IMG/VR virus record: IMGVR_UViG_3300045988_065179
Span: 1-25,997 of that record
DNA from: a virus
DNA length: 25,997 nt
Strand: one strand, 5' to 3'
Part shown: piece by piece, positions 1,423 through 23,279 of the stretch
Numbering within the stretch: the first letter of the stretch is position 1
How the letters are laid out: the number at the start of each line of letters is the position of its first letter
Program-made: the position numbers and the translations under genes
The notes under the pieces: model-generated
Told to the model about the DNA's origin: nothing
Database searches by the model: none
Seen by the model: the letters and a program-made list of their open reading frames with translations, nothing else

Positions 1423-1660
1423 TATTGACGATTTACTTACTGAGTATGAAATAGACTATAGTATGTTTACAAATACGGATGATAGACTATTAAGTATATA
1501 TCCAAAATGACTTGAGCTTAATAAGGCAGATAAGACAGTAATCATATTATATGCTGAATATCACAGTTATAGAGAAGTGGGAAGAATATTAGGAATTAGT
1601 CATACTACCATAGCAAGGTGTATAAGTAATATTAGAAATAAAATATGTGGAAGGATATAG
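1406..1660 (+). CDS. sigma-70 region-4-like HTH protein (second half of a split sigma factor)
   Basis: 'LNKADKTVIILYAEYHSYREVGRILGISHTTIARCISNIRNKI' is a typical region-4 helix-turn-helix. A TAA lies immediately upstream in this frame, so the ORF must start at 1406. GGAGG lies 9 nt upstream of the start. One in-frame TGA is at 1508, and the stop is TAG at 1658-1660. Confidence 0.55.
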
Positions 1661-5274: not shown

Positions 5275-5309
5275 AATGTCAGTTTTTATTTATTTTAACT
5301 ACTAAAAGT

Positions 5310-5325
5310 GAGTAAAAACTTGACA
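5310..5325 (+). promoter_or_regulatory. conserved intergenic motif GAGTAAAAACTTGACA, copy 1
   Basis: This 16-mer is identical to those at 14334 and 23171. It contains TTGACA and lies 70 nt upstream of the ATG at 5396. Confidence 0.5.
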
Positions 5326-5328
5326 CTT

Positions 5329-5353
5329 AAATAGGGAGTAAATCTCCCTATTT
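5329..5353 (+). terminator. perfect 10-bp hairpin (AAATAGGGAG / CTCCCTATTT, 5-nt loop) next to motif copy 1
   Basis: I read the inverted repeat directly from the sequence, and GTGTTT follows it. It could be a terminator or a promoter-embedded palindrome. Confidence 0.4.
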
Positions 5354-5395
5354 GTGTTTAGATACTCAATATGAGAATGATATATTTTAGTAAAA

Positions 5396-5875
5396 ATGGC
5401 AAATCAAGTTTTGGATTTTCCCAATTTAGAAGCTGTCTTAAAACAATATGGAGAACAATTACTTTCTATATATAGGCAGAAATTACTACAAACTGGTTCA
5501 GATGATACGGGAACTCTTGGTAATACACTTAATTATATAGTTGAAGATCAAGATGAAGTATATGAAGTTAGTTTGCAAATACAAGATTATTGGAAGTATG
5601 TTGAGGATGGCAGAAATGCAGGAAAGTTTCCTCCTATCAGTGATATAAAAAGGTGAATACAAACTAAGCCTGTATTACCTCGTCCATATAATGGATTACT
5701 TCCAACTATTGATCAATTAGCATATTTAATAGCAAGAAAGATTTCCAAAAGAGGAATTGAAGGCAAACATATATTAGAGGAATCATTAACTGAATTAGAT
5801 GCTTATATGTTATTAGATGATGCAATTACAAAAGATTTAGAAACACAAGTTGATAATGTATTTAAAAACTTTTAA
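5396..5875 (+). CDS. virion morphogenesis/neck protein (possibly HK97 gp10-like)
   Basis: The 5396..5656 ORF continues through the TGA at 5654 to TAA at 5873-5875. 'YWKYVEDGRNAGKFPP' is weakly reminiscent of the gp10 family. Confidence 0.55.
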
Positions 5876-5877
5876 AA

Positions 5878-8058
5878 ATGGCATTTATACCAAGTAAATT
5901 AGGAATATATAATGCATCAAGGAGTTTTCCTGTTAAATGGAATAATCCTGGATGGGGAATTACTGGAGAATATGATTATTGGACTTGGGGAGATGATTAT
6001 ACTGAAGAAGGGCCTTTAGAGGTAACTATACAAGATCCAAGTAAAGAAGGATGTACAATACAATTTTTATCTCCTACAACAATAACTACTGATTCTTCTA
6101 CTGTATTTCATTTTTATCCTAGAGGCATTACTACTGCTTTATTAGAGGAAGATTTACCAATTAATTTACATAGTAAAGCTCCTGGATATTATCCTGCTAA
6201 TGGCACCATTAAAGTACCAAATACTGGTGGAGAATATACAGTAGAGTATATATTAAATAGATCAGATATTATTAAATGAAATGCAGCAGTTGTTAATGCT
6301 ACAGCTTTAGTTAATATGGAAGTTCTGGATTGGGATTCTTGCTCTATTAAGTTTAAATTCACAGTAAGAGCTAATACTCAATGGAATACAGATTTAACTG
6401 GAACTATCCAATTAGGAGCTTATTATGATACTAATAAATTTATTAGTTATAGTTATGGCTTTAAGATTGAAAAGAGTAATACTCCTGAAGATTTAAAGCT
6501 AGTAGTAACTCCTTCATCTGGAACTTATGGAGCATCTGCTTTTGTTACTGAAGAATTCCATTTAAGTACAACTAAAGCAGAAGAAACAATTACTTCATTT
6601 AATGTTACCTGCCCTCAAGCTAGTAATATTAAAAAGGATATTGTTGATAACTATTTTGTATTAACTGTTCCAGAGAATAAAACTACTAATAATTTGGAGT
6701 TTAGTGCAATGGTTACTGCAACAACTTCTGGAGGTTATACCCTTGAAGCTACAGTTCCAATTAAACAAGCTGCAACGTCTTTAGTGATTCCTAATACTAA
6801 TTATGAAGTAAGTTGAACTGCATCTACATTAAATATAATTGGTACAGGCTCAAACAACTTAGATGATGTTGTATTTAGCATTCCTGTAGGTTGGATTAGT
6901 GGTCAGAAGATAACTGTGAATCCTCAAGGTGTAGCAACTATTAGTTTGAACATTGCAGAAAATTCAGGATTATCTTCCAGAAAAGCAACTATTGGAGTAT
7001 CTGTTATAAAGAATAGTTCAAGTATTATTAATTTATCTATTAATATTACACAATCTGTTAAATCTGATATATCTCCTATTTGGAAAGATTATGTTTGGAA
7101 TGAGATAATCAGTTCAGATTTTATTGAATATCATCTAGATTATGCAGGAGATATGGTTTATGCTGGCAAGGCTTATAAATATCCAGAAACTGATAGAGTA
7201 GAGTTTCTATTAAATAATGTAGCTGAGAATTATCTATCTAATGGTATTATATTTAATACTTCTAAAACTATAATATCTCCAGAATATTTGAAACCATTTA
7301 CTTTGATAACATCTAGTGGAAATGAAAAACCAATTACTTTCTTCAATGACTGGAGTTATAAAGATAGAGATCTAACTAAAGGCACTATGTTAAGTGATCC
7401 TATTACTGGTTTAGTTGATCCAAGGCAGTATTTAGTATCAAGTTGAATTCTACCAACTGGAACTGGAGTTATTAATAGATTCTTTTATATAGATGGAGTA
7501 CAATCTGCTATGGATATTAGTTTAAATTCTGGAATTAATGGATATACATATACAGAAGATTTAAGTAATAAATTATGGTCTTGTGGAAGCTATTTAATAG
7601 TAGGATTTGTAGAAGGTGGAAATATTAGTGATAGACAGATTAGATATGATATAGATACTACAGGTAAAGATTATGTGTTGTATTATACTAATTCAGCAGG
7701 TGGATGAGATTCATTACTTGTTGAGGGTAATGTTAAAAAGAATGATGAGATTAAATCTGAAACATATACTCGTAAGGTATTAAATACATCACAAGAGTTT
7801 GCAAGAAATAAGTATTTGAATACTATAACTTCAAGCTGGGTTCTTTATACTGGTTATTTAAATGATATTCAAGCTTCTAAGATGTTTAATCTAATTGAGA
7901 GTACTAAAGTATATTTGCATAATCTTAAAGATAATACTATCACTCCAGTATTGATTACTGATACAAATTGCGAATATAAAACTTATACTAATCAAGGTAA
8001 AAACAAGTTCTATTATACAATTAATGTGGAAGCTTCTCAAGATACTTATCGTAAATAA
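5878..8058 (+). CDS. large tail structural protein (726 aa) with Ig/BACON-like repeats
   Basis: Five track ORFs (5878, 6316, 6916, 7510 and 7816) share one frame. They are joined by single TGAs at 6277, 6814, 7444 and 7705, and I checked every gap codon by codon. One BACON-like segment reads 'VNPQGVATISLNIAENSGLSSRKATIGVSV'. Confidence 0.75.
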
Positions 8059-8060
8059 TT

Positions 8061-8540
8061 ATGGAAGTATATAAAGACATTAAAGGATATGAGGGACTTT
8101 ACCAGATAAGTAATACTGGTAGAGTCTTCTCTATAAAAAACAATAAAGAACTGAAGAGTGGATATACTCCAGCTGGATATACAAAAGTTCAATTGTGAAA
8201 GAATAAGTCTGGCAAGTGATTCAATATTCATAGATTAGTTGCAGAAGCGTTTATTCCAAACGTAGAAAACTTACCACAAGTAAATCATATAAATGAGATA
8301 AAGGAGGATAATAGGGTTGATAATTTAGAATGATGTACAGCTCAATATAATGTTACTTATGGAAATAGATTAAATAATAATAAAAAACCTGTAATACAGG
8401 AAAGCTTAGATGGCACTTTTATAAAGAGATGAAATTCAATTGCTGATACTAAAAAATATGGGTTTGTTCCCCAAAATATAGGACAGTGTTGTATTGGTAA
8501 TATTTCACAACATAAAGGATATATTTGAAAATATGCGTAA
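8061..8540 (+). CDS. free-standing HNH homing endonuclease (copy 3)
   Basis: The protein reads '[25 protein letters not shown]...[11 protein letters not shown]...[17 protein letters not shown][TGA]CT'. All five Trp codons are TGA (8196, 8217, 8331, 8430, 8526). The standard-code track does not detect this gene. The stop is TAA at 8538-8540. Confidence 0.85.
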
Positions 8541-11500
8541 AAATATTAAATTATTTATTGCAGGAAAAGAAGTACATTGTTCTGAAGGCATATCATTACC
8601 AATGACTTATACTGTAGAAGATTTTCAGAATCCAACAATAGTAAAAAATTCATTCAGTAAGACTATAAGCATTCCAGGAGACAAAAACAATAATAAGATT
8701 TTTGGAGAGATTTATAAGTTAGATAGATTTCTCCATATAAAAGAAGGTAATTTCTCTGGAGTATATTTTGATCCTTCAAAACGAGTTGATTTTGGAATCT
8801 ATAATAATGACTATTTAGTTGAATCTGGATATATGCAATTAAATAGTATATCTATAAAACAAGCTATTATTACTTATAATATTACTTTATATGGAGGATT
8901 AGGAGATTTCTTTTATGGTCTTAAATATAAAGAAGATGGTACTATTAGGACTCTTGCTGATTTACAATACTTTGTAACTGATGAAGATGGGAATACACTT
9001 CCTGCTGATACTGAACTTAATTTTTATATTAACAAAGATTTTGTAAATACTTGTTTTGACTGAAGTAAAACGAATGAAGGAAGTCAAATATATGATTATT
9101 TGACATTTATTCCAGCATATAATGGTTTATATGAAGATTTTGATAATGAAACTTGTTTAATAAATACTAATGAAAATAGTATATTTCCTACTAGTAAGAC
9201 AGATTCAGGAGTTACATATACACCTTATAATGGATATGGATTAGCTAAATTAAATAGAGCATATACAGAATGGGAGATGAGAGATCTTAGAAGTTATATG
9301 CAGAGGCCAGCTTTAAAATTGAGTAAGTTAATTGAAACTATCTGTAGAAAAGAGAATTCTGGATATGATGTAGTATTTGATCCTTCATTTTTTAATTGAA
9401 ATAATCCGTATTGAAGTAAATCCTTTGTAGCTTTACCTTTATTATCTAATCTAGTAAGTGACGAAGAAGATGTAACAGAATCTGGCTTTTTAGTAGAAGA
9501 TAGTAAATATAATTATCAGGTAGGTATAAATAAAGGAGAATCTACATCAAGTCCTTTAAAATTATCCATTGCATCACCTGATATTGTTTACGATTCTGGA
9601 ATAATTGATTTAAGTGAGGCTGGATTTAGAAAAAGCCTTTCTACAACTTTTTATTTTAAGTTAAAGTTTAATCGAACTGCAGGAAATGTTGGGGATAGAT
9701 ATTTTTTTGGATTTAGAAGGTATTTTAGCTCCTCTGCTCCTCCTTTTTATTCAGCATATAGAGGATACGCTGATGTTTGGCTAACAATTACTAATGAAGT
9801 AGATGATACTATTTATACTTCTGAAATACATAGATTTACAAATTCAGGAACCTACTCACATCCTATAGCTAATGGGGTTAATCATTTTGGGTATTTTCAA
9901 AATAATGTATTTTATGATACTTCTTCATTAACTAATGATTTTGTTATTAATATTACAAATTTTAAAATTCCAATTAATAAAATTAAAATTAAACTTAATG
10001 TTGTATGATCTACTGGAAATAGTGTTCGCCCTACTGGATTATTAAGTGAAGTAATAGAAAGAGGAGAGGATTACCAAGCTATTCCAAAAGGAGATCTTAT
10101 AGTAGATCTTACTTCTCCCATTGAAATTACTACTTCTACAGAGGTACTTCAAAGTAATGCATTATTAACTAAAAAATTATTATTAAAAACAGAACAATCT
10201 CCTGCTGATTACTTATTGAGTTATGCAAAACTGTTTGGGTTATATTTTACAAAAGATGTTGATAGTAAAACAATTAGAATATATACTAGAAATAATTTCT
10301 TTAAGAATATAATCTCTGATTGGAGCAAGAGAATAGATTATTCTAAAGATTTCAATGTAAATCCAATATTATTTGATAAGAAGTGATATAGAATGAGTTC
10401 TGAAGGTCCAGAAACTTATTTTTATAAAAAATACAATAAGGAATATTCTATATTATATGGTCAACAAAGATTAAATACTGGTTATAATTTTAATTCTGAA
10501 ACAACTGAACTGTATAGTGATAATATATATGAAAATATAGTTTCTGCAAGATGGAGAAATAAATATTTTAGAAATTTTTACAATTCTTCTTCCCTTGTAG
10601 TTCCTGCATTTATGAATGATAATATTACCTATACATTATTTAATAATAGCACTACTGAACTTAAGACTATAGATCAAGAGTTATACGGAGCTAATTTTAT
10701 AGATCCCTCTAAAACCACAGAATGATATAAAATCGCAGGTAATGATATATTTGCCAAAAATGTATTTTTCTCAATTGATGGTAATGAGGAATCTTTAGAG
10801 GATATCTCTCAATCCCTAGTATTCTTTAACGGTAATGTTCCTTTAACTGATGTAAAAGGAAATGAAGTAACATATTGAATTACAGATGATCTTACAGAAA
10901 TGAACATATTAAATGATCAGGAAATGTGTTATATATCTACTAAAAGTGAGAAAGATATTAGGGGGAATAAAATTGCTATAAAGAGAACTGTATTACCTCA
11001 ATTTACAAGGTATACCGTTTCGTCCTCTAATGTTACTGCTTCTTGAGATTTTGGATTACCACAAGAGATTTATATTGATGATATAACTTATAATATCGGA
11101 AGTACTATTTATAGTAGATTCTGAAGTGAATTTTATAATGATCAATTTGATGTAAATACTAAAAAAGTTACCTGCTTTGTAAGATTGGATGATTTAGATG
11201 TTAAGTATGATTTACTTAGACAGTTCTATTATTTTGAAGATTCTTACTGGATACTTAATAAGATTGATGCTTATGATATTAATTCAGATTCTACAGTTAG
11301 ATGTGAATTTATTAAAGTTCAAGATATTAATAGTTATTTAGCTGGAGTTCAAAATCTAGGTGAATACATATCATTTGATGATTCAGATCCAGTTGTAGAT
11401 TATAAAGCTGGGACTAAAAAGATTACAGTTACTTCTAATATTCCTTGAGAATTAGGATGATATAGTCCAAATGAAATTGTAAGCGTTACACCTGAATCTG

Positions 11501-11892
11501 GGCAACCTGGAGAAACAGAATTAACAGTTACTTATAATGAGAATACTACATATAATCAAAGGAGTTTCTACTTTAGTCTTTATAAACAAGGAGGCATAGA
11601 TGGTCCTAAATGTATGTTTACTCAAACTCCAGACCCAAATAAAGCTGTTCTTATTACAGGAAAACTTCAAACTTCTACTGGAGGTATTCCTTCTGGTGTT
11701 AATCAGATTCTAACTGAAAACGATAACTTCTTGAATGTGGCTTATATGCAGGATAATGGAAATTATAGAATATATGCACAAAATGGAGTCCAGTTTAAAT
11801 TTGAAGTGACTGATGGACCAACAGGAACAGTTAAATATACAGAGAATTTAACACTAACAGAAGATACTGTTAAAAACGTAACTATAAACTAA
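8533..11892 (+). CDS. very large tail/baseplate structural protein (1119 aa) with a C-terminal BACON-like domain
   Basis: A single frame runs from ATG 8533 to TAA at 11890-11892. It contains 11 in-frame TGAs: 9061, 9397, 9412, 10006, 10384, 10723, 10876, 11044, 11122, 11446 and 11458. I found no in-frame TAA or TAG when checking line by line. The C-terminal region reads 'WELGWYSPNEIVSVTPESGQPGETELTVTYNENTTYNQRSFYFSL'. Confidence 0.75.
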
Positions 11893-11893
11893 T

Positions 11894-14236
11894 ATGGCTG
11901 AAGAAATTAAAAAAGTAATTAGTATAGATACTAAAACCAGTTCAAAGTCGATCAAGCAGCTACGAGAAGAAGTAGCTGGCTTGACGGCTGAACTTGAAGA
12001 TCTTGAGATTGGTAGTACTGACTATACTAAAAAGCTTGAGGAACTTGTTAATGTTCAAAATAAGTTAGGTGTTGCTACAGAATCTATGCAAGGTAAAACT
12101 GTAAATGCAGTTAAGGCGTTTGACAGTATCAATCAAGTAGCAGGAGGTTTAGCTGGAGGAGTTTCAGCTGTTAGTGCAGCATTCACTTTATTTGGAAAAG
12201 ATACAGAGAATCTTCAAAAAACTATGGTTAAATTGCAAGCAGCAATTGCTATAGTTCAGGGAATTGGAGGATTAAAAGGTTTAGGTGAAGGTATTCTTAA
12301 TGGAGTAAAATCATTTAAGGCATTATCTGTAGCAATAACTGGTACATCAGCTGCTATGAATGGATTTAAGGCAGCATTAGTATCAACAGGAATTGGTGCG
12401 CTACTTGTAGCAGTTGGTTTGCTTATAGATAAACTTACTTCATTAAAAGATGAAGCTAAATTAACAAGCGATGAAATAGAAAATATTAGACAAAGGAATG
12501 AGAATTTAAGAACTCAAGCTAAAGAATCATTTTGAGAGGAGGAATATCGGAGTCTTATTAAATTAAATCCTGAATTACAAGATGAAATAGAGAATGTAAT
12601 TAAAGCTACTGATGCATATAGGGAATTAAATAGAATAAGAACTGAAACTCAAAAAAAGGCTTGAGAAGAATATGATGCTAAGATATTCTTGAATAATATT
12701 ATAGAACTAGATAAGGCATTTAAGAATGCTCTAACTGCTTATGATAAAGATTTACTATCAATAGGTACAAGATTTGGTAAAACAGAAGAGGAAATCTCAG
12801 AATTATTTAAAAATACGTTATCTAGACAACAATTCTTAAAAAAAGTAACTGGGAAGGATGTAAAAGAAGCAAGATTAGAATTAGAAAGAATTTCTGAAAG
12901 TCTATTAGACAATAGTAAGTATTTAGCAGAAACTAAAGATCCTTTATATGATTACCAAAATCTTGTAAAAACAGGAAATAAAATTCTTGAAGATAGAAAA
13001 AAAGCAGAAGAAGAAGCGGCAAGAGCTAGAAAACAGGCTTTAGATAAACTTCAAGATGAAATAAAAACTAAAAAAGCAGCCATTGATAAATATTGGTCTG
13101 ATAATGAAAAAACTTTATTAAGTGAAACAGATAGAGAAAATTTAATTTTAAGAGAAAATTATCAGTTACAATTAAATGATTTAAAATGGCTACTCGATAA
13201 AAAAGAATTAACTCAAGAGGAATATTTAAAAAGAGTTAAACAAGTAAATGATGCATATAATAAAGAATATTTAGAAGATCAGAGAGAAATTTATAAAACA
13301 GAGCTTCAAGATAGATTATCTGCATTACAAGAAATGCAAGATAGGGAATCTCAATTATTTGCAAATAAAGAGGCTGCATTATCTGCAGGTAAATCTGGAA
13401 GTTACGAAACTAGAGTTCAACAATTTGGTTCAACGGATTTCTATCAATCTGGAGAAGATGTTCAAAAACAATATCAAGATACATTAGCTTATAATGAACA
13501 GTTATATAATCTTACCAAAGATAAAATTACAAGAGAGAATGAATTGATGTCTCAACAGCAAGCTATCTTAGATGAGCAATATAACAATAAGCTGATAACT
13601 GAACAAGAATATACCAATCAATCTCAAGCAATTAAATTACAGCAAGAAGCTAATGATATAGCTTTATCAGAAGCAGCTAATGCAAGAGAAGAAGCAGATC
13701 TTCAAGCATTTAAAGATAGACAAGCTAAAAAGCAACAGGCTATTCAAGCTACTATGAATGTAGCTTCTTCTTTAAGTGGAGCTTTAGCTAATGTATTTAA
13801 ACAAGAAGCTAGTGATGATTCAAAATCAGAGAAACAGAGGGAGAAATCATTTAAAGTTTATAAAGCATTAGCTACTACTCAAGCTATTATTGATACTATC
13901 AGTTCTGCCCAAGGTGCATATAAAGCTATGGTAGGTATTCCGATTGTAGGACCTATTCTTGCTCCAATTGCTGCTGCTACAGCTGTTATTGCTGGTATTG
14001 CTAATGTAAAAGCTATCCAAAATGAGCAGCTTCCTTCATCTGGAGGTTCTGGAAGTGATGCAGGAACTACTGCTCCTGCTGCTTTAAATACTGCTCCTGT
14101 AGAATATACTCGAAACTTACTTGGCAATAAAGAGACTGATGAATTGAATCAACCAGTTAAATGTTATGTAGTTGAGAGTGATATTACTACTGCTCAAACT
14201 AAAGTTGCAGTTACAGAATCAAATGCAAGTTTCTAA
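11894..14236 (+). CDS. tape-measure-like protein (780 aa)
   Basis: The protein has long coiled-coil-type Q/E/K-rich sequence and Gly/Ala-rich hydrophobic segments near both ends. The 11894 and 12689 ORFs are joined in frame by TGAs at 12533 and 12662. Confidence 0.65.
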
Positions 14237-14237
14237 A

Positions 14238-14298
14238 GTGAGTAAAATTTATGACACTACTATGTAAGTTGCTGATTATCAGTGCTTATATAGTAGTG
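14238..14298 (+). terminator. degenerate motif copy (GTGAGTAAAATTTATGACAC) plus a long imperfect hairpin just after the tape-measure-like gene stop
   Basis: The stem is CACTACTAT-GTAAG-(TTG)-CTGAT, then a one-nucleotide T loop, then ATCAG-(TG)-CTTAT-ATAGTAGTG, spanning 14255-14298. An A/T-rich tail follows it. Confidence 0.4.
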
Positions 14299-14333
14299 CT
14301 ATGTCAAAATTTATTTATCTTAGATACAAATTT

Positions 14334-14372
14334 GAGTAAAAACTTGACATTTGATAGTATATAAATATATAA
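14334..14372 (+). promoter_or_regulatory. conserved motif copy 3 with a -10-like element (candidate promoter of the head-gene block)
   Basis: GAGTAAAAACTTGACA lies at 14334-14349. A TATATA/TATAAA-like sequence sits about 16-17 nt after TTGACA. The motif ends 79 nt upstream of the ATG at 14429. Confidence 0.5.
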
Positions 14373-14428
14373 AAATAAAAGATTGTAACAATATTACATT
14401 TTTAAAATAGCTTATATATTAATAAAAA

Positions 14429-15022
14429 ATGGAAAAAATGTATAATGATCTTCCATTATATCAAGCAATTATTGCTGATGATTGTGATGGAATAGAGTTC
14501 GTAGCATTGACCAGTAAACCTGCAACCCAAGTTAATTGGCTTGCTTTTGGGGAATCTCAGAAGTTCTCGATGGATGAAGAAAAACATATAGTTACTTCTT
14601 GTTTAATGGTATGTGATATACCTATATTTAGACGGGATAGTAAAAACGGAGAATATTATATTCAATATGATAAAGAAACTCTCCGTTTAATGGCTGAAAA
14701 AATGATGTATGATAAGAGAACTACTGATGTAAATATTGAACATTTGGAAGATTCAGTAATTCCTGGAATAATTCTTCAAGAACTATATGTTAAAGATATA
14801 GATAGAGGAATTAATCCAGTTGAATTTGCTGATTGTCCAGATGGTTCATTATTTGCTACTTATAAAGTAAATAATCCTGTTATATGGGATGCAATTAAAG
14901 CTGGCAAGTTTAAAGGGTTCTCTATTGAGGGATTGTTTACTTTAGAAAGACAATCTGATGAATATGAGGAACTTAAAGAGATTCAAAAAATGTTGAGAAA
15001 AATAAAAAGAGTTAAATATTAA
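14429..15022 (+). CDS. XkdF-like putative prohead protease
   Basis: '...VNIEHLEDSV...' and 'VIWDAIKAGKFKGFSIEG' resemble the PBSX XkdF family, and the gene sits before the scaffold and capsid genes. There is no TGA; both Trp codons are TGG. Confidence 0.65.
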   Translation: MEKMYNDLPLYQAIIADDCDGIEFVALTSKPATQVNWLAFGESQKFSMDEEKHIVTSCLMVCDIPIFRRDSKNGEYYIQYDKETLRLMAEKMMYDKRTTDVNIEHLEDSVIPGIILQELYVKDIDRGINPVEFADCPDGSLFATYKVNNPVIWDAIKAGKFKGFSIEGLFTLERQSDEYEELKEIQKMLRKIKRVKY

Positions 15023-15028
15023 TTAATT

Positions 15029-15640
15029 ATGAGTAAATTCACAAAAATTAAACTTGAGTTAGCTAAGATGCTTGCAAAATTTAACGATGTTAAGACTAGT
15101 GCTGGAGTTCTAACTTACGATGGTAGTGAGGATGAGGATCTAAGGGCAGGTATGAGTGTATATACAATGGATACTGATACTGGCGAATATGCACCTGCTG
15201 CTGATGGTGAGTATGTTACCGAAGATGGCAAAACTATTGTTGTTAAAGACGGTAAAGTAGAGTCCATTACTGATCCTAAAGCTGAAGTTGATCCTGAAGA
15301 AGACAGGACTGTTGAGGTTGATGCTGCTTGTGGAACTAAGAGAGTAAAAGCTGAGGAAGTTGCTGATCCTGCTGTTGAAACAGACGGTGTTAAAGAAACT
15401 GAGACTGATGCAATCGACGCTATTCATCGCGAAATTAATGAGCTCTATGATATTGTAGATAAGCTTGTTAAGAAAGTAGCAGAACTTGAAGGAAAATCAG
15501 AAGCTACTGAAAAGACTGTAGAAAAAATGAGTAAGATGAGTGCTGCTTTTTCAGCAGAGGAAACACTTGAAAATAAAACAACTGCTCCTATAAGTGGGAT
15601 AGCAGAAATAGATAGAAAGCTTAAAAACTTTATTGGTTAA
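15029..15640 (+). CDS. scaffolding protein
   Basis: The protein is acidic and rich in D/E, has a coiled-coil-like C-terminus, and is encoded between the protease and capsid genes. Confidence 0.6.
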   Translation: MSKFTKIKLELAKMLAKFNDVKTSAGVLTYDGSEDEDLRAGMSVYTMDTDTGEYAPAADGEYVTEDGKTIVVKDGKVESITDPKAEVDPEEDRTVEVDAACGTKRVKAEEVADPAVETDGVKETETDAIDAIHREINELYDIVDKLVKKVAELEGKSEATEKTVEKMSKMSAAFSAEETLENKTTAPISGIAEIDRKLKNFIG

Positions 15641-15661
15641 TTTATAAAATTTTAAATAATT

Positions 15662-16567
15662 ATGGCAAATAGTCCTGTAATGACAACGCTTCCTGCTTAT
15701 GTGGAGCAAAGACGTCTCCCTCTTATTAAGGAAGCGGTTTTAAAAGCTAAGAGTGCAAGTTTATTTAATCTTCAGACAGATATTAAAACTGATGCTGCTC
15801 TTAACCTGTTATCTACCGATGTTCAGTTCGGTGATGGTCTTACTTGTGGTTGGGATGAGGCTGGAACTCAGACTCTTTCTCAGAGAATTCTTAAGACTGG
15901 TAATATTAAGATTAATATGGCATATTGCGATAAGGCTATGCTGAAATACTGGACTCAGTATGCAGTTAAGGTAGCCGCTGGTCAGAAGACACTTCCTTTT
16001 GAAGAGGATTTCGTAAATGCTGTTGTAGAGAACGTAAAAGAGGCTATTGAGGTAGCTATCTGGCAGGGTGATACGGCTTCAAAAACTAATAACTTGAAGT
16101 ATTTTGATGGTCTGCTTAAGATTCTTGCTGATGATGCTGGTACTGTAGATGTAGAAATTGCTGGAACATCTGCCTATACTGACATTATGGCAGTTTATAA
16201 TGCAATTCCTGAGAAGGTTCTTGATGGTGCTTCGATTCTTGTTGGTGCCGATATGTTCCGTAAGTTCGTAAATGAACTTGTTGAGAAGAACTATTTCCAC
16301 TATAGCGGAGAGAGCCTTAATGGTGAGATTTATCTTCCTGGTTCACAGGTTAAGGTTATTGCTGTTAATGGTCTTAATGGAACTGATAAGATTGTTGCTG
16401 GTCAGTTAGACAAGAACTTCTTCTATGGTGTAGATATGATGAACGATGAAGAGAAATTCGAATTGTGGTATTCACAGGATTTCCGCGAGTTCAGATTAGC
16501 TATTGAATTTAACGCTGGTGTACAAGTTGCTTTCCCTGATGAAGTAGTATTAGGTGCCAAGGCTTAA
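15662..16567 (+). CDS. major capsid protein (HK97-fold type)
   Basis: This is a 301-aa ORF in the canonical position. Its sequence is typical of capsid proteins paired with XkdF-like proteases. It has the highest G+C and the most distinct codon usage in the window. All four Trp codons are TGG. Confidence 0.8.
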   Translation: MANSPVMTTLPAYVEQRRLPLIKEAVLKAKSASLFNLQTDIKTDAALNLLSTDVQFGDGLTCGWDEAGTQTLSQRILKTGNIKINMAYCDKAMLKYWTQYAVKVAAGQKTLPFEEDFVNAVVENVKEAIEVAIWQGDTASKTNNLKYFDGLLKILADDAGTVDVEIAGTSAYTDIMAVYNAIPEKVLDGASILVGADMFRKFVNELVEKNYFHYSGESLNGEIYLPGSQVKVIAVNGLNGTDKIVAGQLDKNFFYGVDMMNDEEKFELWYSQDFREFRLAIEFNAGVQVAFPDEVVLGAKA

Positions 16568-16607
16568 TTTCAATAGATTTTATTAACTTATAAATGATAT
16601 TGAAATT

Positions 16608-17132
16608 ATGGCTTGTTTAATAACTATCGCAGGAATCACACTTGATTGCCAACCTTCATTGGGTGGAATCAAACAGGTATGGATTACCCAGTATGCAGAT
16701 GTTAAAAGTGTAACGGTTGATCCTGAGAGCAATATGATTTCAGCTATTACTCTTGAGTCTTCAGCTAAATGGTATAACTACCAATTTAGAAAGGCTACTG
16801 GTTCTCTAACCTCAACTTTAAATGTAGATGAAAGTGCTGGTGTTAATTATGTAAGTAATGAGCTTGCTCTTGTATTTACAAAGATGGAAACAGCAAAACG
16901 AGTAGAGATTGCAGCTTTATCAATTGGTCAGCTTGCAGTTGTTGTTGAAGATAGCAATGGTAAGTATTGGTTCTTAGGTAAAGATGATTATGTAAGCGCT
17001 TCCGCTGGTACGGGTGTTACTGGTACTGCTAAAGGTGATCAGAATGCTTATACTCTGACACTTTCAACAGATTCAGATTCTTATCCTTATGAGTTATCTG
17101 CAGAAGCTATCCAAAGCGTTGTAGGTGCTTAA
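16608..17132 (+). CDS. abundant virion protein, possibly the major tail tube protein
   Basis: This is a 174-aa ORF. 'VVVEDSNGKYWFLGKDD...TGTAKGDQNAYTLTL' resembles tail tube proteins. It is TGA-free, with three TGG Trp codons, and a strong terminator follows it. Confidence 0.55.
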   Translation: MACLITIAGITLDCQPSLGGIKQVWITQYADVKSVTVDPESNMISAITLESSAKWYNYQFRKATGSLTSTLNVDESAGVNYVSNELALVFTKMETAKRVEIAALSIGQLAVVVEDSNGKYWFLGKDDYVSASAGTGVTGTAKGDQNAYTLTLSTDSDSYPYELSAEAIQSVVGA

Positions 17133-17141
17133 TAACAGAAA

Positions 17142-17180
17142 GAGGGGCGAGTATTAATTTACTTGCCCCTTATTTTGTTT
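17142..17180 (+). terminator. rho-independent terminator
   Basis: The stem GGGGCGAGT (17144-17152) pairs with ACTTGCCCC (17161-17169), including one G-U pair. The loop is 8 nt and the sequence TTATTTTGTTT follows. Confidence 0.75.
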
Positions 17181-17223
17181 ATATACCACATAATGAATAA
17201 TTTATATTTTATAGAAAAATAAT

Positions 17224-18345
17224 ATGGCAATAGTATTCACATCAGAACCAGTAGCTAAAAATACTACAACTAAAAATTTAGATTTAATTAAAGCTGCTGA
17301 ATGTAAGTTACAAGAAAAATCAGTAGAATATACTCAAAATGCAGAGTTTGAAGTACTGCCAGATGAGGGATATGATGGAATGTCTAAGGTAAATGTATCA
17401 GTTGATGTGGCAGTTCCAACAGTTCAAAATAATAAAGATGCTTCTATTACTTCTAATGGCACTATTGAGATTCTTCCAGATAGTGACTATGATGTTATGG
17501 AGAAGGTAACTGCTACTGTAAATATTCCATTACAAGATAAGCACATTTCAATAGACAAAAATGTATCAATGACAGAAATAACTCCTGATGAAGGATATTC
17601 TGGTTTATCAAGAGTTGAAGTCGATGTAGAAATACCAGTTGAGGATAATAAACAGGTTACTATTACTGAAAATGGAACTACTACTATCATTCCTGGAGAT
17701 GGATATGATTATATAGAGATGTGTGACGTAATTGTTAATGTTCCTACATATAATATAGAAGATAATGTTACTAGAAGTGTTTTTTTAAGCTCAGATGGAT
17801 CTCAACAATATACTCCTTCATCAGGTTATGATGCAATGAAGAAACTAACATTACAAGTTTATATACAATATAGTATTGATAATCCAGGAGTAAGTTTAGC
17901 ATATTATCAACAGAATAATGTCCCTGATAATATTATATGATGGGAATCATTAACTGATGGGAGTTATAAATGTGCTTCTTCAGAATTAAAAACATTTGAT
18001 AAAACATTATCTTCATTAAATATAGGATCAAATATGTTCTTATTTTGTTCAAGTTTAGAAACCTTTTCGTCTGATTTAAGTGCATTGACTGAAGCAGAGA
18101 ATATGTTTGGTAGTTGTTTTAATATTAAAGATATTACATTAACTGGAACATTAGATGTTGATTTAGATTTAGCAGGCACTAATAGTACTAGAATAACAGT
18201 AGATTCATTAATGTCAGTAATAAATGCATTAGTAGATTTAACAGGGCAAGTAGAAAAAACACAAACAATTGGATCTGCAAATCTTGCAAAACTAACAGAT
18301 GAACAAAAAGCAATTGCAACTAATAAAAATTGGATATTAGCATAA
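17224..18345 (+). CDS. receptor-binding/tail fibre protein paralog 1 (373 aa): tandem PDxGYD repeats plus a BspA-like LRR C-terminal domain
   Basis: The 17224 and 18034 ORFs are joined by the TGA at 17938 (TGA followed by TGG, giving WW). The C-terminus '...LTDEQKAIATNKNWILA' is shared with paralogs 2 and 3. Confidence 0.7.
17311..17865 (+). repeat. five tandem 36-41-aa coding repeats (consensus ..T.NG...I.PD.GYDGM.KV.V.V.)
   Basis: The repeat cores are 'VLPDEGYDGMSKVNVSVDV', 'ILPDSDYDVMEKVTATVNI', 'ITPDEGYSGLSRVEVDVEI', 'IIPGDGYDYIEMCDVIVNV' and 'YTPSSGYDAMKKLTLQVYI'. Confidence 0.75.
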
Positions 18346-18560
18346 TGGAACATTTACATATTAATAAAACTGATAAATTCATTATACTTACATCAGATGA
18401 AGGGTATTATATTACAAAGTATGATGGATCTAATATTAAAGACTATTGTGCATTTACAATAATGTATTGTCCTTTAACTATTGATGTTAATAAGTATTAT
18501 ATTGTTAATGAATTAACACATAAGTCATACTTAAAAGATAAAGAATCAATTAAAAAATAA
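18345..18560 (+). CDS. small conserved protein paired with paralog 1 (possible fibre chaperone)
   Basis: It is a paralog of 21875..22111: 'EGYYITKYDGSNIKDYCAFTIMYCPL' aligns with 'EGYVLTNYKEGMDIKTYSSFTECICPL'. I prefer the start at 18345, where TAATG overlaps the upstream stop. Confidence 0.55.
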   Translation: MEHLHINKTDKFIILTSDEGYYITKYDGSNIKDYCAFTIMYCPLTIDVNKYYIVNELTHKSYLKDKESIKK

Positions 18561-18565
18561 ACAAT

Positions 18566-20749
18566 ATGGAAAATACTATTCTGCCTTACCTAAATGTATT
18601 AGAAGTAGATACAATTGATAAGTCAAATGTTACTAAGGTTCTAGTAATAGATAAAGATGATGAAGTTAAGGTTATGGATGGTTCTCAGTTAGGAACAAAC
18701 AGTTATTTTGATATTCAAAATAAACCTGCAATTAATGGAGTTGAGTTAAATGGAAATATTCCTTCTAAAGAATTAGGAATTCCTTCTATTGAAGATGTTG
18801 ATAATCAAATTACAGAGAAACTAGCTGACTATCCAACTAAAGAAGAGGTAACTGCAGAGATTACTGAAGCCACTGCTGGAAAGCAAAATACACTTGTTCA
18901 AGGTGATGGTATAGTAATTGAGGGTAATACTATTTCAGCAGATTATTCTACAATTAATAATAAGCCATCTTTAAATGGAACTGAATTATCTGGAGCAGCT
19001 TCAATCGTACCTGCCATTAATATTCAATCAGTCCCATCTAAAGTTACTTTAGCTCCTGTATTTGGTAATCAAACTGGAGAAGCAGTTGAACTTCCAATAT
19101 ATAATACAGAGACTAACCAAGCTGGTATTGTTAATGGCCCTCTATACGCACAATTAGCAGATAAATATACTAAAGCTGAAATTGATGCTTTAAATACAGC
19201 TATTAATAAAGAGATAGCTTCAAAACAGGGAACGCTTACAGCAGGAAAGAATATATCTATTATAGATAATGTAATCTCTGCTTTTGAGAATCATTTCTTA
19301 CTTAATTTAGATGAGAATGATCCTGTAAGACAGAAACATATCTATGACTTTATTAGAACTAATCTGGACTTCTATTTATTCTGCCAGATTACATATAAAG
19401 GTGATATTATAGTTATTCCTGTTGCAACTATTGAACATCCTGAAACTATTGATTTATATGGCTATTATTTCCAAGATAATGGTGTATTAGTAGTTATTAA
19501 TGCAATCTTAGTAAATAATGGTAATATGACTGTTAAAGTTACTGAGATTGATCCTATTAATAAAGGATATACTAAAGAAGAAGTAGATGCCAAACTTGAG
19601 GAAAAACAAGGAGTATTTGCTCCTCAAGCTCCATTAGCTTTTAATGAAGATAAGACTCAATTATCTGTAGATTTATCTACTTATGCAACTAATGATAAGG
19701 TTAATACATTAGAAACTTCTTTAGAAGGAAAAATAGATCTAAAACAAGATAAAGGAGATTATGCTTTAAAGAGTGATATTCCAACTAAAGTTAGTGAGCT
19801 TACTAATGATTCTAACTTTGTAACTGAAGCAGAGGTTTCTGGAGATTTAGCAGGTAAAGCAGATAAGACTTATGTTGATGAGCAGCTTGCTACTAAACAG
19901 CCTGTAGGAGATTATGCAACAAAAACAGAACTTGCTGGTAAAGCTGATTCTTCTGTGGTAGAATCTTTATCTACTCAAGTAGCAACTAATACTTCAGACA
20001 TATCAATTATTAAAACAAAGCAAGAAGAAGATGGAAATAAGATTGATTCTCTTGATAAAGAGATGGCTACTAAGCAAGATTTACTTGTAAGTGGAACTAA
20101 TATCAAAACAATCAATAGTCAGTCTTTACTTGGAGAAGGTAATATAGAAATTAAAAGTGGTTCTAATATTCCATTTCTATTTATAAATTCCATTACTCAT
20201 CTTTCTGGAGATTTCGCTGCTGTTAAGAATGCTATAGCTAATAAAACACCATTTGAGCTTTATTATGTAAATATTCTAGGTTATGGTGATATAGCAGCTC
20301 CAGAAGTATGTTTTGTTTCAGGAGAAAGTATTCAAGCTACTTTCCATTTTGAAAGTACTACAGCTAATCATACTGTAGTTCAAACTACTATTACTCCAAC
20401 TGGAGTATCAGCAAATACTAGTTATCATAGTTATCAAGAGCAACTAGTTTCTGGTACTAATATAAAGACTATTAATGGTGAAAGTATTTTAGGAGAAGGT
20501 AATCTTGAAATATCTGGAGGTGGAGGGACTACTGACTATACTCAGTTAACAAATAAACCTCAGATTAATTCTGTTGAGTTATCTGGCAATAAGAGTTTAT
20601 CAGATTTAGGTATTCAGCCTGCTGGAAACTATATTGAAGCTGGAACTGGAACCCAACCTCAAATAAATACTATTACTGTTCTAACTCAATCAGAGTATGA
20701 TGGTTTATCAACTAAAGATCCTAATACACAATATTTAATTGTAGAATAA
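18566..20749 (+). CDS. tail fibre protein (727 aa)
   Basis: The motif 'NKPxINGxELxG' occurs three times and 'LVSGTNIKTINxxSxLGEGNxEI' occurs twice. These motifs resemble tail-fibre repeats, a judgement made by eye. It is an intact ORF with no Trp residue. Confidence 0.85.
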   Translation: MENTILPYLNVLEVDTIDKSNVTKVLVIDKDDEVKVMDGSQLGTNSYFDIQNKPAINGVELNGNIPSKELGIPSIEDVDNQITEKLADYPTKEEVTAEITEATAGKQNTLVQGDGIVIEGNTISADYSTINNKPSLNGTELSGAASIVPAINIQSVPSKVTLAPVFGNQTGEAVELPIYNTETNQAGIVNGPLYAQLADKYTKAEIDALNTAINKEIASKQGTLTAGKNISIIDNVISAFENHFLLNLDENDPVRQKHIYDFIRTNLDFYLFCQITYKGDIIVIPVATIEHPETIDLYGYYFQDNGVLVVINAILVNNGNMTVKVTEIDPINKGYTKEEVDAKLEEKQGVFAPQAPLAFNEDKTQLSVDLSTYATNDKVNTLETSLEGKIDLKQDKGDYALKSDIPTKVSELTNDSNFVTEAEVSGDLAGKADKTYVDEQLATKQPVGDYATKTELAGKADSSVVESLSTQVATNTSDISIIKTKQEEDGNKIDSLDKEMATKQDLLVSGTNIKTINSQSLLGEGNIEIKSGSNIPFLFINSITHLSGDFAAVKNAIANKTPFELYYVNILGYGDIAAPEVCFVSGESIQATFHFESTTANHTVVQTTITPTGVSANTSYHSYQEQLVSGTNIKTINGESILGEGNLEISGGGGTTDYTQLTNKPQINSVELSGNKSLSDLGIQPAGNYIEAGTGTQPQINTITVLTQSEYDGLSTKDPNTQYLIVE

Positions 20750-20750
20750 T

Positions 20751-21872
20751 ATGAATATTAGAGATGATTTAAAAACATTTTATGTAGGTGACAGACAAGG
20801 TACTGCTATTTATGTCGGCAGTACCAAAGTCTGGCCTATCAATCCTTGTAATCCACAGATGGTTACAGTTGCTAATCCAGTTCCTCAAGGTACTACAATA
20901 GTTGATTCTTGCAGTTATGTATTTAGCAGTTATGATGGAACTGCAGATGATATACAAAGGGATTGAATGGGTAGAGGATCTGGTTCTAATTCTACAGTAA
21001 TTAGCTTCACTGCTGATTTAAGTGAATTAGCCCTTAATATAGATGGTGTACCTCTTTGTAGTATTATAGGTTCTGCTCAAACATATGCAGATGTAAAGTT
21101 AAATAGTGGAGATTTAAGTAGAAAAGGAGGGTTTTTTAACACATCTCATTTTGATCTAAATAACCAGGAGATTACTAATCTTAATGAAGCATATGGAAGA
21201 TGGTCTAGTGAATCTCAATTTTGGGGTCAAACAATACATAGTGCTACTTTATCTAATGTTAAAATACCTACAACTACTAAAGAAGTAAGTGCAAATTATT
21301 TATTTATTGGAGTAAAAATAGATAATAATGATTTCTCTGTAATGAATAATTTTCAAAATCTTGTATTAGTAGATCCAAAATGGGCATTTGCAGATACAGC
21401 TGATGGAGCTACTAATATAGATAATATAACGATTAATATTCCCTTTAAAGGAGATTGTAATCATATGTTTCATAGAGCATTATATCTAACAACTATTCCA
21501 AGTAATTTTACCTTTACTGGAATTACAGATATAAGCTATATGTTTAGTACTTGTAGTAGATTAACAGCTACACCAGAAATAGATTGTCATCTTGTTACAG
21601 ATTGTACTAGTTTTGCTGCAAATTGTCCAGAATTAGTTACTGTAGGAGCTTTAAATGGATTAGGAGAGAGTTTAACTAAAGGAGGAATTCTTTATTTTGC
21701 ACAATCTCCAAATCTATCTACGGATTCATTACAAACTATAGCAGAATCTATTGGCACAGCAGTAGCTTCTTATACAAGTATATCATTAAAATCTACTGCA
21801 TATGATAAACTTACAAATGAACAGAAATCATTAATAGCTTCAAAGAATTGAAGTATAAATCGAGTTGCATAA
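20751..21872 (+). CDS. receptor-binding protein paralog 2 (373 aa), BspA-like LRR type
   Basis: The 20751 and 20967 ORFs are joined by the TGA at 20964. The TGA at 21849 extends the C-terminus to '...LTNEQKSLIASKN[W]SINRVA', ending in TAA at 21870-21872. Confidence 0.7.
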
Positions 21873-21874
21873 TT

Positions 21875-22111
21875 ATGAAAATTGAAATTAAAGAAAAATA
21901 TAAAGTAGTTAGTCCAGAAGAAGGTTATGTACTTACTAACTATAAAGAAGGAATGGATATTAAAACATATAGTTCATTTACCGAATGTATCTGTCCTTTA
22001 AGTTGCGATTTAGAGCATCTATCAGAAGTCTCTTTAGATAAAGATGCTGAATATAAAGAATTAGCTATTAAAGCTTCTAAAGAGTATGAGGAATCAATAA
22101 AAGTTAGATAA
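21875..22111 (+). CDS. small conserved protein paired with paralog 2 (possible fibre chaperone)
   Basis: It is a paralog of 18345..18560. I prefer the start at 21875 because the code-4 upstream gene ends at 21872. Confidence 0.55.
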   Translation: MKIEIKEKYKVVSPEEGYVLTNYKEGMDIKTYSSFTECICPLSCDLEHLSEVSLDKDAEYKELAIKASKEYEESIKVR

Positions 22112-22113
22112 TT

Positions 22114-23136
22114 ATGATTATACTTAAGAATACTAAAAATACACAAACTTTCTATGTTAGTAAGAAATGTGGTATTGAATCTGGACAACTTCCTGTTGGT
22201 TCTTATACTAAGATTGAAGCAGATGAAAGATTCCAACCTAAAGGTGTTGCTGTATCAGATTCCGATACCTTTAGAAGCTATGCAGATAAGATAGGACAGA
22301 TTTCTGGAGGTGGTGGAGGAAAGATTAATTTAAATGATTATGGATTAACATTTGCACATTCTAGTATGACACAAGAGCAATATAATAATATAGAATATTC
22401 TCTTCCAGATAATATAAATTATTGATTTGATGGGACTAATTTCATATCTACAATAGATATATCAAGTCATATTGATCTGTCTAAAGTATATAACGCATCA
22501 TATGCCTTCCAAAACACATATAATATATATATTGATAATATAAGAACTAGTGTTGGGGATTCGTATGCATTTTCTGGATTTCAAGGCACACTAAATAATT
22601 TAGAATTAATTAATACCTTATCCTCTAGTTGAAATTATGCAGCAAGAACATTCTTTAATGCTTCTAATTTACCAACTACTTTAAAAGTGATAAATGAAGT
22701 TGATACTGGTGTATCAGCTTTACAATTTTTCTTTTATTCTGTTAGCAGTAATGTTCCTGAAATTGAAGTTATTAATGGACAACTATCTTTATATAATTAC
22801 TTTAGTTCATATAATGAGGGTGTTACAACAGTAGGAAAAATTAAATTAAATAATTGCACATTAACAGGAGATCTAAATAAAACTTCAATATGTGCATCTA
22901 CTAATACTATTGTTACTTATTTTGGGGGTGTTGAAGGAGCTGATAAAAGTATGAATTTAGCAAATTTTAGAGCACTAAATAGTCAATCAGTAACTGATAT
23001 TATTACAAATGTTAGTGATTTAACTGGAAAGGATACCAAAACTTTAACTTTTTATACTAACATTTATAATGCACTTACTGAAGAACAGAAATCATTAGCT
23101 ACATCTAAAAACTGAACTTTAGCAAGTTCAAACTAA
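22114..23136 (+). CDS. receptor-binding protein paralog 3 (340 aa), LRR-like
   Basis: The 22114 and 22687 ORFs are joined through TGAs at 22423 and 22630. The TGA at 23113 extends the C-terminus to '...LTEEQKSLATSKN[W]TLASSN', ending in TAA at 23134-23136. Confidence 0.7.
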
Positions 23137-23170
23137 TTGTCTATTTTTATTTTTTCTTAGTACTTTGAGT

Positions 23171-23186
23171 GAGTAAAAACTTGACA
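23171..23186 (+). promoter_or_regulatory. conserved intergenic motif GAGTAAAAACTTGACA, copy 4
   Basis: This is the identical 16-mer, ending 93 nt upstream of the ATG at 23280. Confidence 0.5.
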
Positions 23187-23213
23187 TTAAAGGAGGCTTA
23201 GGTCTCCTTTAAT
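23186..23213 (+). terminator. perfect 10-bp hairpin (ATTAAAGGAG / CTCCTTTAAT, 8-nt loop) next to motif copy 4
   Basis: I read the inverted repeat directly from the sequence, and TATTTTAAT follows it. Its position relative to the motif matches the hairpin at 5329, but the stem sequence differs. Confidence 0.4.
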
Positions 23214-23279
23214 TATTTTAATACATTAGTAAATTGGTTTATATTTTAAGAAAAAGATATGTAAAACTAATGTAAAATT

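Follow-up and report, generated by a model that had tools for sequence, protein, structure and literature searches.

Virus record IMGVR_UViG_3300045988_065179 carries a short sequence that recurs, on one strand, in the gaps ahead of its gene blocks. Here, we examine this repeat, the approximately 49-bp element to which it belongs, and two small sigma-like genes, g04 and g05, that encode its candidate reader. The stretch of DNA analyzed, called the window, is 25,997 nt long and opens a metagenomic contig of 31,166 nt (ENA ERZ28575012, scaffold_1189). Within it, the 17-nt sequence TGAGTAAAAACTTGACA occurs three times exactly on the + strand, starting at 5309, 14333, and 23170. An earlier note on this DNA had reported the repeat as the 16-mer GAGTAAAAACTTGACA at 5310–5325, 14334–14349, and 23171–23186, all on the + strand; these copies are present as described, and the exact match common to all three extends to 17 nt. 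When the window was simulated 200 times with a first-order Markov model, the longest k-mer found at least three times ranged from 11 to 14 nt. Simulated triple repeats never exceeded 14 nt, and three exact 17-nt copies are therefore far beyond chance. When up to three mismatches to GAGTAAAAACTTGACA are allowed, a scan of the window yields a single fourth site, at 15557, which is intragenic and carries 3 mismatches.

The gene map of the window depends on a nonstandard code. Under the standard code, the window appears full of broken genes. With TAA and TAG as the sole stops, approximately 30 tightly packed + strand genes emerge, and the minus strand adds nothing convincing. TGA occupies conserved tryptophan positions of HNH endonuclease domains (NLEWCT, GYxWxY), and we therefore assign TGA to tryptophan. 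The tryptophan codons of the called genes comprise 45 TGA and 52 TGG, and early genes also contain TGA, so a recoding confined to late genes fits poorly. Scans for a TGA suppressor tRNA found none, and no other tRNA gene, in the window or in 18 related loci, and start codons of the window genes lack preceding Shine–Dalgarno sequences. With TGA as a sense codon, the three longest gaps are 5132–5395, 14237–14428, and 23137–23279, and these are the three motif sites; further gaps lie at 2454–2542 and 17133–17223. The claim that the copies occupy the only long gaps thus survives under the TGA-sense code and fails under the standard one. The distances of 70, 79, and 93 nt from the copies to the ATGs at 5396, 14429, and 23280, as reported earlier, are correct.

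The 16-mer had been taken as the whole motif. It is only the right arm of an imperfect palindrome of 48–51 nt (approximately 49 nt), composed of TGTCWA-TTTTTATTT, a center holding a (T/A)AC box, and GAGTAAAAA(A)nTWGACA. The first copy in the window, c1 (5277..5325, + strand), combines a TGTCAG left arm, the T-rich box TTTTTATTTATTTT, the center AACTAC, and the right arm GAGTAAAAACTTGACA, and lies upstream of a gene block at 5396–14236 that contains tail and tape-measure-like genes. Copy c2 (14302..14349, + strand) runs from TGTCAA to GAGTAAAAACTTGACA, has no hairpin after it, and precedes the TGA-free head operon at 14429–17132, with protease-like, scaffold-like, and major capsid-like genes. 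Copy c3 (23138..23186, + strand) runs from TGTCTA to GAGTAAAAACTTGACA and begins 1 nt past the stop codon at 23134–23136. Downstream of c3 stand an inserted GIY-YIG gene, a gene at 23848–24240, the portal gene, and then lysis genes, the last seen in relatives. Finally, the degenerate copy reported earlier, GTGAGTAAAATTTATGACAC, is located where it was said to be (14238..14257, + strand), immediately downstream of the stop codon that closes a gene at 14236. This site, c2a, is a right arm without a left arm, and it is kept as GAGTAAATTATTGACA in a lineage with approximately 77% identity (locus L219).

Comparison with relatives places these elements in a conserved genome plan. Megablast of the window against GenBank phages returned no match. 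Many relatives of approximately 27–34 kb are present in Logan and ENA assemblies as well as in IMG/VR sample 3300045988; the portal protein by itself is indexed in 119 collection blocks. Their genomes begin with a divergent early control region, followed by rightward small genes, g04, g05, further small genes, and terminase. Next come c1 and the tail genes; c2, the protease-, scaffold-, and capsid-like genes and a strong terminator; and the fiber genes. The order ends with c3, the portal and lysis genes (Peptidase_M15_3), and a short leftward operon, whose 573-aa protein resembles a DExH helicase by eye. Across 89 related loci, we identified 31 distinct versions of the element, all at five orthologous intergenic sites and each directed toward the downstream genes. 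None of the 31 versions lies inside a gene, in line with the intergenic distribution that the earlier note's proposal called for. The five sites are c0, upstream of the early region and outside the window; c1, c2, and c3, inside it; and, in relatives, c5, which is on the opposite strand before a small leftward gene.

What is conserved in the element is chiefly its right arm, which is near-invariant although the flanks and nearby coding DNA diverge to approximately 77% identity. The run of A residues is 5 or 6 nt long, with both forms at times in one genome, and the base following the run is free. The impression from L066–L069 that the copies in one genome switch jointly between 5 and 6 A did not hold, as L004 and L021 mix the forms. 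All three window copies end in TTGACA, and relatives also have TAGACA and TTCACA. In the element alignment, nearly all of the paired columns are invariant. TAGACA right arms are paired only with TGTCTA left arms; six unique versions combine TGTCTA with TTGACA, which is a mismatch, and L239 has an uncompensated CATC. A more distant relative, L070, in which g04 is 51% identical, is particularly informative. Its c1 element, TGTGAGAATTTTTATTTTTCTTAGTACTAAATTTCAGTAAAAATCTTCACA, is followed by cct and then by the ATG of the homologous gene.

Hairpins accompany the element. Directly after c1, AAATAGGGAG-TAAAT-CTCCCTATTT (5329..5353, + strand) has a GGGAG/CTCCC core and is followed by the tail GTGTTT; it resembles a terminator or a 5' stem-loop, it stays under the rule of the terminator scan, and its stem is kept in relatives. 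The loop is TAAAT (5339–5343) in the window and ATTTA in L008, on an identical stem, an inversion that looks like a copying of the hairpin from the opposite strand. A long hairpin, CACTACTATGTAAG...CTTATATAGTAGTG (14255..14298, + strand), separates c2a from c2. Directly after c3, ATTAAAGGAGGC-TTAG-GTCTCCTTTAAT (23186..23213, + strand) is followed by TATTTTAAT. The terminator scan lists this hairpin with 12 pairs and the tail TATTTTAATA, it looks like an intrinsic terminator, and its stem is kept through compensatory changes in L224 and L265. Stable hairpins thus follow c0, c1, c3, and the armless c2a. The strong intrinsic terminator at 17142..17171 (+ strand) marks the end of the head operon and is not part of the repeated element. 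The c0 hairpin, GGCAGG...CCTGCC (e.g., L066:17002–17021), lacks a T-run on the + strand and is followed by CTTTTT on the minus strand. Read on the latter strand, it separates the 573-aa gene from the leftward early promoters, and it could attenuate leftward early transcription.

The candidate reader is encoded in the early operon, upstream of the blocks that c1–c3 would drive. The earlier note placed an extracytoplasmic function (ECF)-like sigma factor at 1114–1660. That region in fact holds two overlapping open reading frames (ORFs), 1114–1422 and 1406–1660, each of which resembles one half of a sigma factor. Specifically, g04 (1114..1422, + strand, 102 aa) is a stand-alone protein of the sigma region-2-like, ECF type, and g05 (1406..1660, + strand, 84 aa) has a helix-turn-helix (HTH) resembling sigma region 4. 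The two overlap by 17 nt (1406–1422, ATGAAACGGAAGATTAA) in different frames, an arrangement kept in relatives down to 51% g04 identity, and they are adjacent and overlapping in every relative examined. The overlap fits translational coupling. Inspection by eye revealed no slippery sequence in it.

Assignment of g04 to the sigma factors comes mainly through its family. Alone, g04 has no Pfam match, and it matches TIGR02937 (sigma70-ECF) with E = 8e-4 and 19 bits, under the cut-off of 42.9. An exhaustive profile search with g04 recovered 301 related clusters, most of approximately 100 aa. Sigma70_r2 of Pfam matches 36 of 137 remote g04 relatives (best E = 9e-6), TIGR02937 matches 31 of them (best E = 3e-10), and TIGR02985, the Bacteroidota ECF model, matches 20. 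The few PDB profile matches of g04 are sigma factors, with weak E-values; sequence searches of g04 and g05 against PDB gave nothing significant. For g05, HTH_50 matches with E = 5e-8, above its cut-off, and Sigma70_r4_2 (E = 4e-4) and Sigma70_r4 (E = 1.7e-3) match below threshold. The homologs P0032 (156 aa) and P0119 (184 aa) combine in one chain an N-terminus like g04 and an HTH like g05, and the C-terminal halves of fused homologs match Sigma70_r4/r4_2. An hhalign comparison of the g04 family with E. coli RpoE aligned the HTH of fused members only, at low probability. From these matches, the fusions, and the conserved adjacency of the two ORFs, we conclude that g04 and g05 are probably the two halves of an ECF-like sigma factor.

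The window lacks the host-type promoters seen in this phage family. In relatives that cover the early control region, each genome has 3–4 perfect TTTG-N19–21-TAnnTTTG sequences within a few hundred nt, ahead of the early genes, on both strands and facing both ways (e.g., L068:17180–17420, L066:15165–15201, and L008:250–380). TTTG (−33) and TAnnTTTG (−7) form the Bacteroidota primary-sigma promoter, with the −7 box at −12 to −5 in Flavobacterium (PMC9723704). In the 26-kb window, this pattern occurs 0 times on either strand versus 1.2 expected by chance; the relatives show that the scan can detect it where it is present. Because the window is devoid of the host-type promoters that the early genes of relatives carry, the late genes need another signal. 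A direct exchange between the two signals is evident before one homologous gene (MENDIKETIKQ.../MESDIKETIKQ...), which has c5 in some genomes and a host-type promoter in others. The latter reads TTTG-N20-TATATTTG-tgat-ATG, ending 4 nt before the ATG, and this short distance indicates a leaderless layout.

The earlier note saw in TTGACA a sigma-70-like −35 element. Nothing is conserved 16–18 nt downstream of it, and in the first and third copies that position is occupied by hairpin arms (TCTCCC and CTCCTT), where the scan lists no promoter. The convincing −10-like TATA had been credited to the third copy; it is the second that has a TATA-like hexamer, at 17–18 nt. In L070, the ATG stands 3 nt after the motif, which leaves no room for a spacer, a −10 element, and a start site. 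We therefore reject TTGACA as a −35 box; a promoter at this site would have to initiate inside the motif or immediately past it. AACTT is also improbable as an ECF-type −35 element. AAAAAC(TT) can be read as an AAC-type −35, and among the copies, no conserved −10 element exists 16–17 nt downstream. The central (T/A)AC box lies 16–18 nt upstream of TWGACA, and the start that it implies would fall inside the L070 ORF.

A further finding bears on the resemblance to TTGACA. The identical GAGTAAAAACTTGACA is present in intergenic regions of unrelated IMG/VR phages of approximately 36% G+C (loci L001, L007, L010, L011, L013, L016, L020, L024, L034, L035, and L037), with TATAGT- or TATAAT-like hexamers 16–17 nt on. 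There, the 16-mer consists of an A-tract and the −35 of TTGACA-N16–17-TATAAT-like promoters, and no upstream inverted partner exists; these phages serve as a control that shows how the sequence appears in genuine sigma-70-type use. Several of these promoters share the spacer aaatagcgaatcgtgt. The identity between these phages and the element is a coincidence of an A-tract with TTGACA, not homology.

We favor, with somewhat better than even confidence, the interpretation that the element is a phage-specific late promoter, serving the middle/late operons of this uncultured phage and read by the split sigma factor g04/g05. The notion is as follows. Early in infection, the host primary sigma factor would transcribe from TTTG-N19–21-TAnnTTTG promoters in the divergent control region just outside the window. 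The early rightward operon would yield g04, the sigma-2 half, and g05, the sigma-4 half, which together would form a two-polypeptide ECF-like sigma factor. Subsequently, host core polymerase carrying g04/g05 would initiate at c1 for the tail genes, at c2 for the head genes, and at c3 for the portal and lysis genes. Relatives would have two further start sites: c0, which precedes the early/terminase operon, and c5, before the small leftward gene; c0 could provide late expression of the terminase operon. Transcription would start inside the motif or no more than approximately 3 nt after it, such that GAGTAAAAA would play the part of a −10 and the T-rich box, exactly 17 bp upstream of it, that of a −35. 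Alternatively, TGTC could be the −35 and the central TAC box the −10, with initiation at the G of GAGT. The hairpins after c0, c1, and c3 would then lie at transcript 5' ends, where they may stabilize or attenuate the new transcript, or they may terminate the upstream operon.

Several observations argue for this interpretation, among them the triple repeat, the intergenic placement and orientation of the element, its near-invariant right arm, and the lack of host-type promoters in the window. Four more can be added. First, c5 and a host-type promoter interchange at one site. Second, the L070 element abuts its ATG as the leaderless host-type promoter does (3 versus 4 nt). Third, c0 of the relatives is in the divergent region by the start of the leftward gene and has no codirectional upstream operon; no such operon is there to supply an RNA that carries the element. 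Fourth, g04/g05 belong to the early operon, so a cascade from early promoter to phage sigma factor to element fits. The earlier proposal of a phage-specific promoter with the sigma-like genes as candidate reader thus gains comparative support; its mechanistic details are not supported.

Several points weigh against this interpretation. Three of the five sites have a terminator-like hairpin directly behind them, which is an unexpected arrangement if the motif is where transcription begins. Because the A-run is 5 or 6 nt long, recognition must tolerate a 1-bp shift within the motif. The c0 element sits upstream of the sigma genes themselves. The more distant phages L071, L285, and L078 have g04 homologs and no recognizable element, and in L071, L072, L078, and L285, we recognized neither the element nor an alternative repeated late motif. 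The inverted repeat, in which TTTTTATTT and GAGTAAAAA pair only with the help of G–U, points to a + strand RNA hairpin. Likewise, the outer arms of L070 show a compensated change, from TGTC/GACA to TGTG/CACA, which would not be expected of a simple sigma-dependent promoter. The matches that place g04 among the sigma factors are sub-threshold and transitive, and Foldseek of an AlphaFold model of g04 (predicted local distance difference test, pLDDT, 77) against PDB gave no significant match; E. coli sigma-E region 2 appears at rank 6 with E = 7.7, which is not significant.

Some of these points would be explained if the element acted as RNA, the main rival, which we nevertheless regard as unlikely. 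Here, long + strand transcripts from the early promoter or from upstream operons would carry an approximately 49-nt AU-rich hairpin, often followed by a second, GC-rich one, whose function would be RNase III-type processing, transcript stability, or antitermination in cis ahead of terminators. Read-through is plausible, given that the window genes are tightly packed on one strand. Predicted stems of the element are approximately 19–20 bp long with bulges, and the RNA folds are far more stable than those of shuffled sequence (z = −6.0 for 5270–5365, and −4.2 and −3.6). Because the TTTTTATTT–GAGTAAAAA pairing needs G–U pairs, it can form only as + strand RNA. The compensated L070 arms, the restriction of TAGACA to TGTCTA partners, and the compensatory changes in the hairpin downstream of c3 all speak for a hairpin role. 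In contrast, the right arm is conserved as sequence, while the left arm varies and tolerates mismatches, as in the six versions and L239 noted above, and c2a keeps a right arm without any left arm. At c0, there is no upstream + strand operon to transcribe the element, and c5 is swapped in other genomes for a promoter, not for another hairpin. With an RNA role alone, the late genes would also have no promoter signal and the phage sigma factor nothing to act on. A search of the whole window against Rfam 15, on both strands, gave 0 matches at gathering score. The promoter and hairpin roles are not mutually exclusive.

The palindrome could also be an operator at which a dimeric, DNA-binding phage protein, perhaps g05 in the role of a simple HTH regulator, switches nearby weak host-type promoters on or off. 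We consider this improbable. The TGTCWA/TWGACA half-sites are inverted and invariant in almost all copies, and g05 alone is best matched by a generic HTH family (HTH_50). Moreover, TAnnTTTT-like boxes stand between the element and some of the ATGs; c1 and c3 are followed by TATATTTT boxes, and c2 by TATATATT. However, those downstream boxes have no TTTG at 19–21 nt and are expected by chance in a spacer of 70% A+T, and L070 has no room for a separate core promoter between element and ATG. The half-sites are approximately 43 bp apart, center to center, which is unusual for a dimer. Lastly, g05 is fused to a sigma-2-like domain in homologs, which argues that it is a sigma-4 domain.

Mobile DNA offers an explanation in which the repeats have no regulatory role and are recombination leftovers or targets of homing endonucleases. 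The phage has an abundance of such enzymes, with five free-standing homing-endonuclease genes in 26 kb: three of the HNH type (627–1121, 1645–2130, and 8061–8540) and two of the GIY-YIG type (23280–23858 and 25299–25961). The GIY-YIG gene at 23280–23858 is absent from L015, L021, L004, and L019 and is therefore an insertion between c3 and the next gene; its place directly after c3, and the coincidence of the elements with module boundaries, are what this explanation can claim. Yet lineages more than 20% apart in DNA share an invariant right arm, the orientation toward the genes is always fixed, elements occur with no endonuclease gene nearby, and no element is near the endonuclease genes at 627, 1645, 8061, and 25299. 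We therefore find the mobile-DNA explanation very improbable. As a separate observation on these genes, approximately 150 nt at 1804–1955 and at 8227–8376 match one and the same stretch of relatives at approximately 77% identity; these are HNH gene copies.

Least credible of all is a conventional host promoter of the sigma-70 type, its −35 formed by TTGACA and an UP-like element by the A-tract, for which the consensus match, the TATAGT/TATAAT-bearing 16-mers of unrelated phages, and the hexamers of copy 2 (TATAAA/ATATAA at 17–18 nt in the window, TATAAT at 17 nt in L008) can be cited, but which founders on the GC-rich hairpins that replace spacer and −10 hexamer at c1, c3, and c0, on the L070 ORF that begins 3 nt past the motif, on the tolerated variants TAGACA and TTCACA, and on the fact that the clear host-type promoters of this phage family are TTTG/TAnnTTTG, not TTGACA/TATAAT.

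Additional observations concern the host and the code. The Bacteroidota-type early promoters suggest, from promoter sequence, a Bacteroidota host. That host is hard to reconcile with TGA as tryptophan and with the lack of a suppressor tRNA in our scans. GTDB genomes scanned for the composite pattern gave 12 single matches in unrelated taxa, none of them phage-related by tblastx, and hence no host or prophage was found. A metagenome scan with a degenerate pattern returned mostly chance matches and a few relatives. A scan of IMG/VR for the L070 variant gave 3 single matches, which are probably due to chance. A relative of approximately 77% identity lies inside contigs five times the phage length: L097 is human gut contig ORSJ01000015.1 (175,808 nt), and L219 and L224 are IMG/VR 3300045988_175865 (148,631 nt). 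These over-long contigs could represent a prophage, a concatemer, or a chimeric assembly.

Use of TGA is uneven among the genes. The head operon g17–g20 (14429–17132), the long fiber gene with the small gene ahead of it (g22 and g23; 18345–20749), and the gene at 23848 together with the portal gene (23848–25318) have no TGA codon at all, whereas neighboring genes have up to 11. Selection acting on strongly expressed genes could account for the TGA-free genes, as could a recent exchange with standard-code phages. Upstream of the large terminase gene, the ORFs 2543–2878 and 2787–3239 overlap by 92 nt in different frames, as they also do in L008. This overlap is unusually long. ORF 2787–3239, with an HTH-like segment, may encode the small terminase.

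To our knowledge, almost nothing has been established about the timing of gene expression in Bacteroidota phages, with the exception of the crAss-like phages, and those bring their own polymerase. If the promoter interpretation is correct, the phages studied here would possess a compact late-transcription system made of two small proteins and an approximately 49-bp DNA element. They would also supply a natural sigma factor split into sigma-2 and sigma-4 polypeptides in a family of hundreds, and an orthogonal promoter/sigma pair of possible use in engineering gut Bacteroidota. More generally, a textbook-looking −35 box can mislead where the host uses another promoter type. The widest form of the idea is that many small phages with Bacteroidota-type promoters carry a naturally split ECF sigma factor, made of a sigma-2-only protein of approximately 100 aa and a separate sigma-4 protein, and that in the present lineage this factor reads an approximately 49-bp promoter with halves that are inverted repeats of each other. 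One sequence would then be a late promoter on DNA and a hairpin on read-through RNA, in a genome with TGA as tryptophan and no suppressor tRNA. We offer it as a doubtful though real possibility. Approximately 300 clusters at 50% identity stand behind its split-sigma part, and most of those are sigma-2-only in length.

Comparison with known systems reveals where the candidate promoter is familiar and where it departs from precedent. At the late promoters of phage T4, gp55, which is related to sigma region 2, and gp33, in place of region 4, replace the host sigma factor. The T4 late promoter is the 8-bp TATAAATA, and gp33 does not bind DNA. Analogous to T4, the present phages have two small phage proteins and an A+T-rich element right by the presumed start, before structural operons, with no conventional −35. 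The two systems differ in several respects: we found no sequence relationship, the HTH of g05 is probably a DNA-binding one of the sigma-4 type, nothing suggests that a sliding clamp is required, and the element is palindromic and approximately 49 bp long rather than 8.

Phage T7, for its part, has intergenic RNase III sites, hairpins between operons that often lie by phage promoters. Like them, the present elements are predicted to form conserved intergenic hairpins of approximately two helical turns between operons on a single coding strand. Unlike them, the elements have no sequence or Rfam match, their stem is rich in A–U and G–U pairs, one arm is far more conserved than the other, and c2a has no partner arm.

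The cellular counterpart of a divided ECF factor is SigO–RsoA of Bacillus subtilis, in which ECF-type sigma-2-like and sigma-4-like domains are two polypeptides encoded by adjacent genes (PMC7826278). The g04/g05 pair may be likened to SigO–RsoA in principle. SigO–RsoA is cellular, belongs to Firmicutes, and responds to stress, whereas g04/g05 are phage-encoded, their nearest profiles are those of Bacteroidota ECF factors (TIGR02985), and their genes run in the order sigma-2 then sigma-4 with a 17-nt overlap. Regarding the Bacteroidota promoter, the motif shares conserved TA and TTG near the presumed start, as well as the position at c5; in the motif, TA and TTG are 5–6 nt apart, not 3, and no TTTG precedes them at 19–21 nt. 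With the unrelated low-GC phages, the motif shares an intergenic GAGTAAAAACTTGACA: theirs has a TATAAT-like hexamer at 16–17 nt and no inverted partner, and here the reverse applies. A phage late promoter served by a phage sigma factor is a known kind of system; what would be unusual here is the split ECF sigma, the palindrome, the Bacteroidota-type setting, and the TGA recoding.

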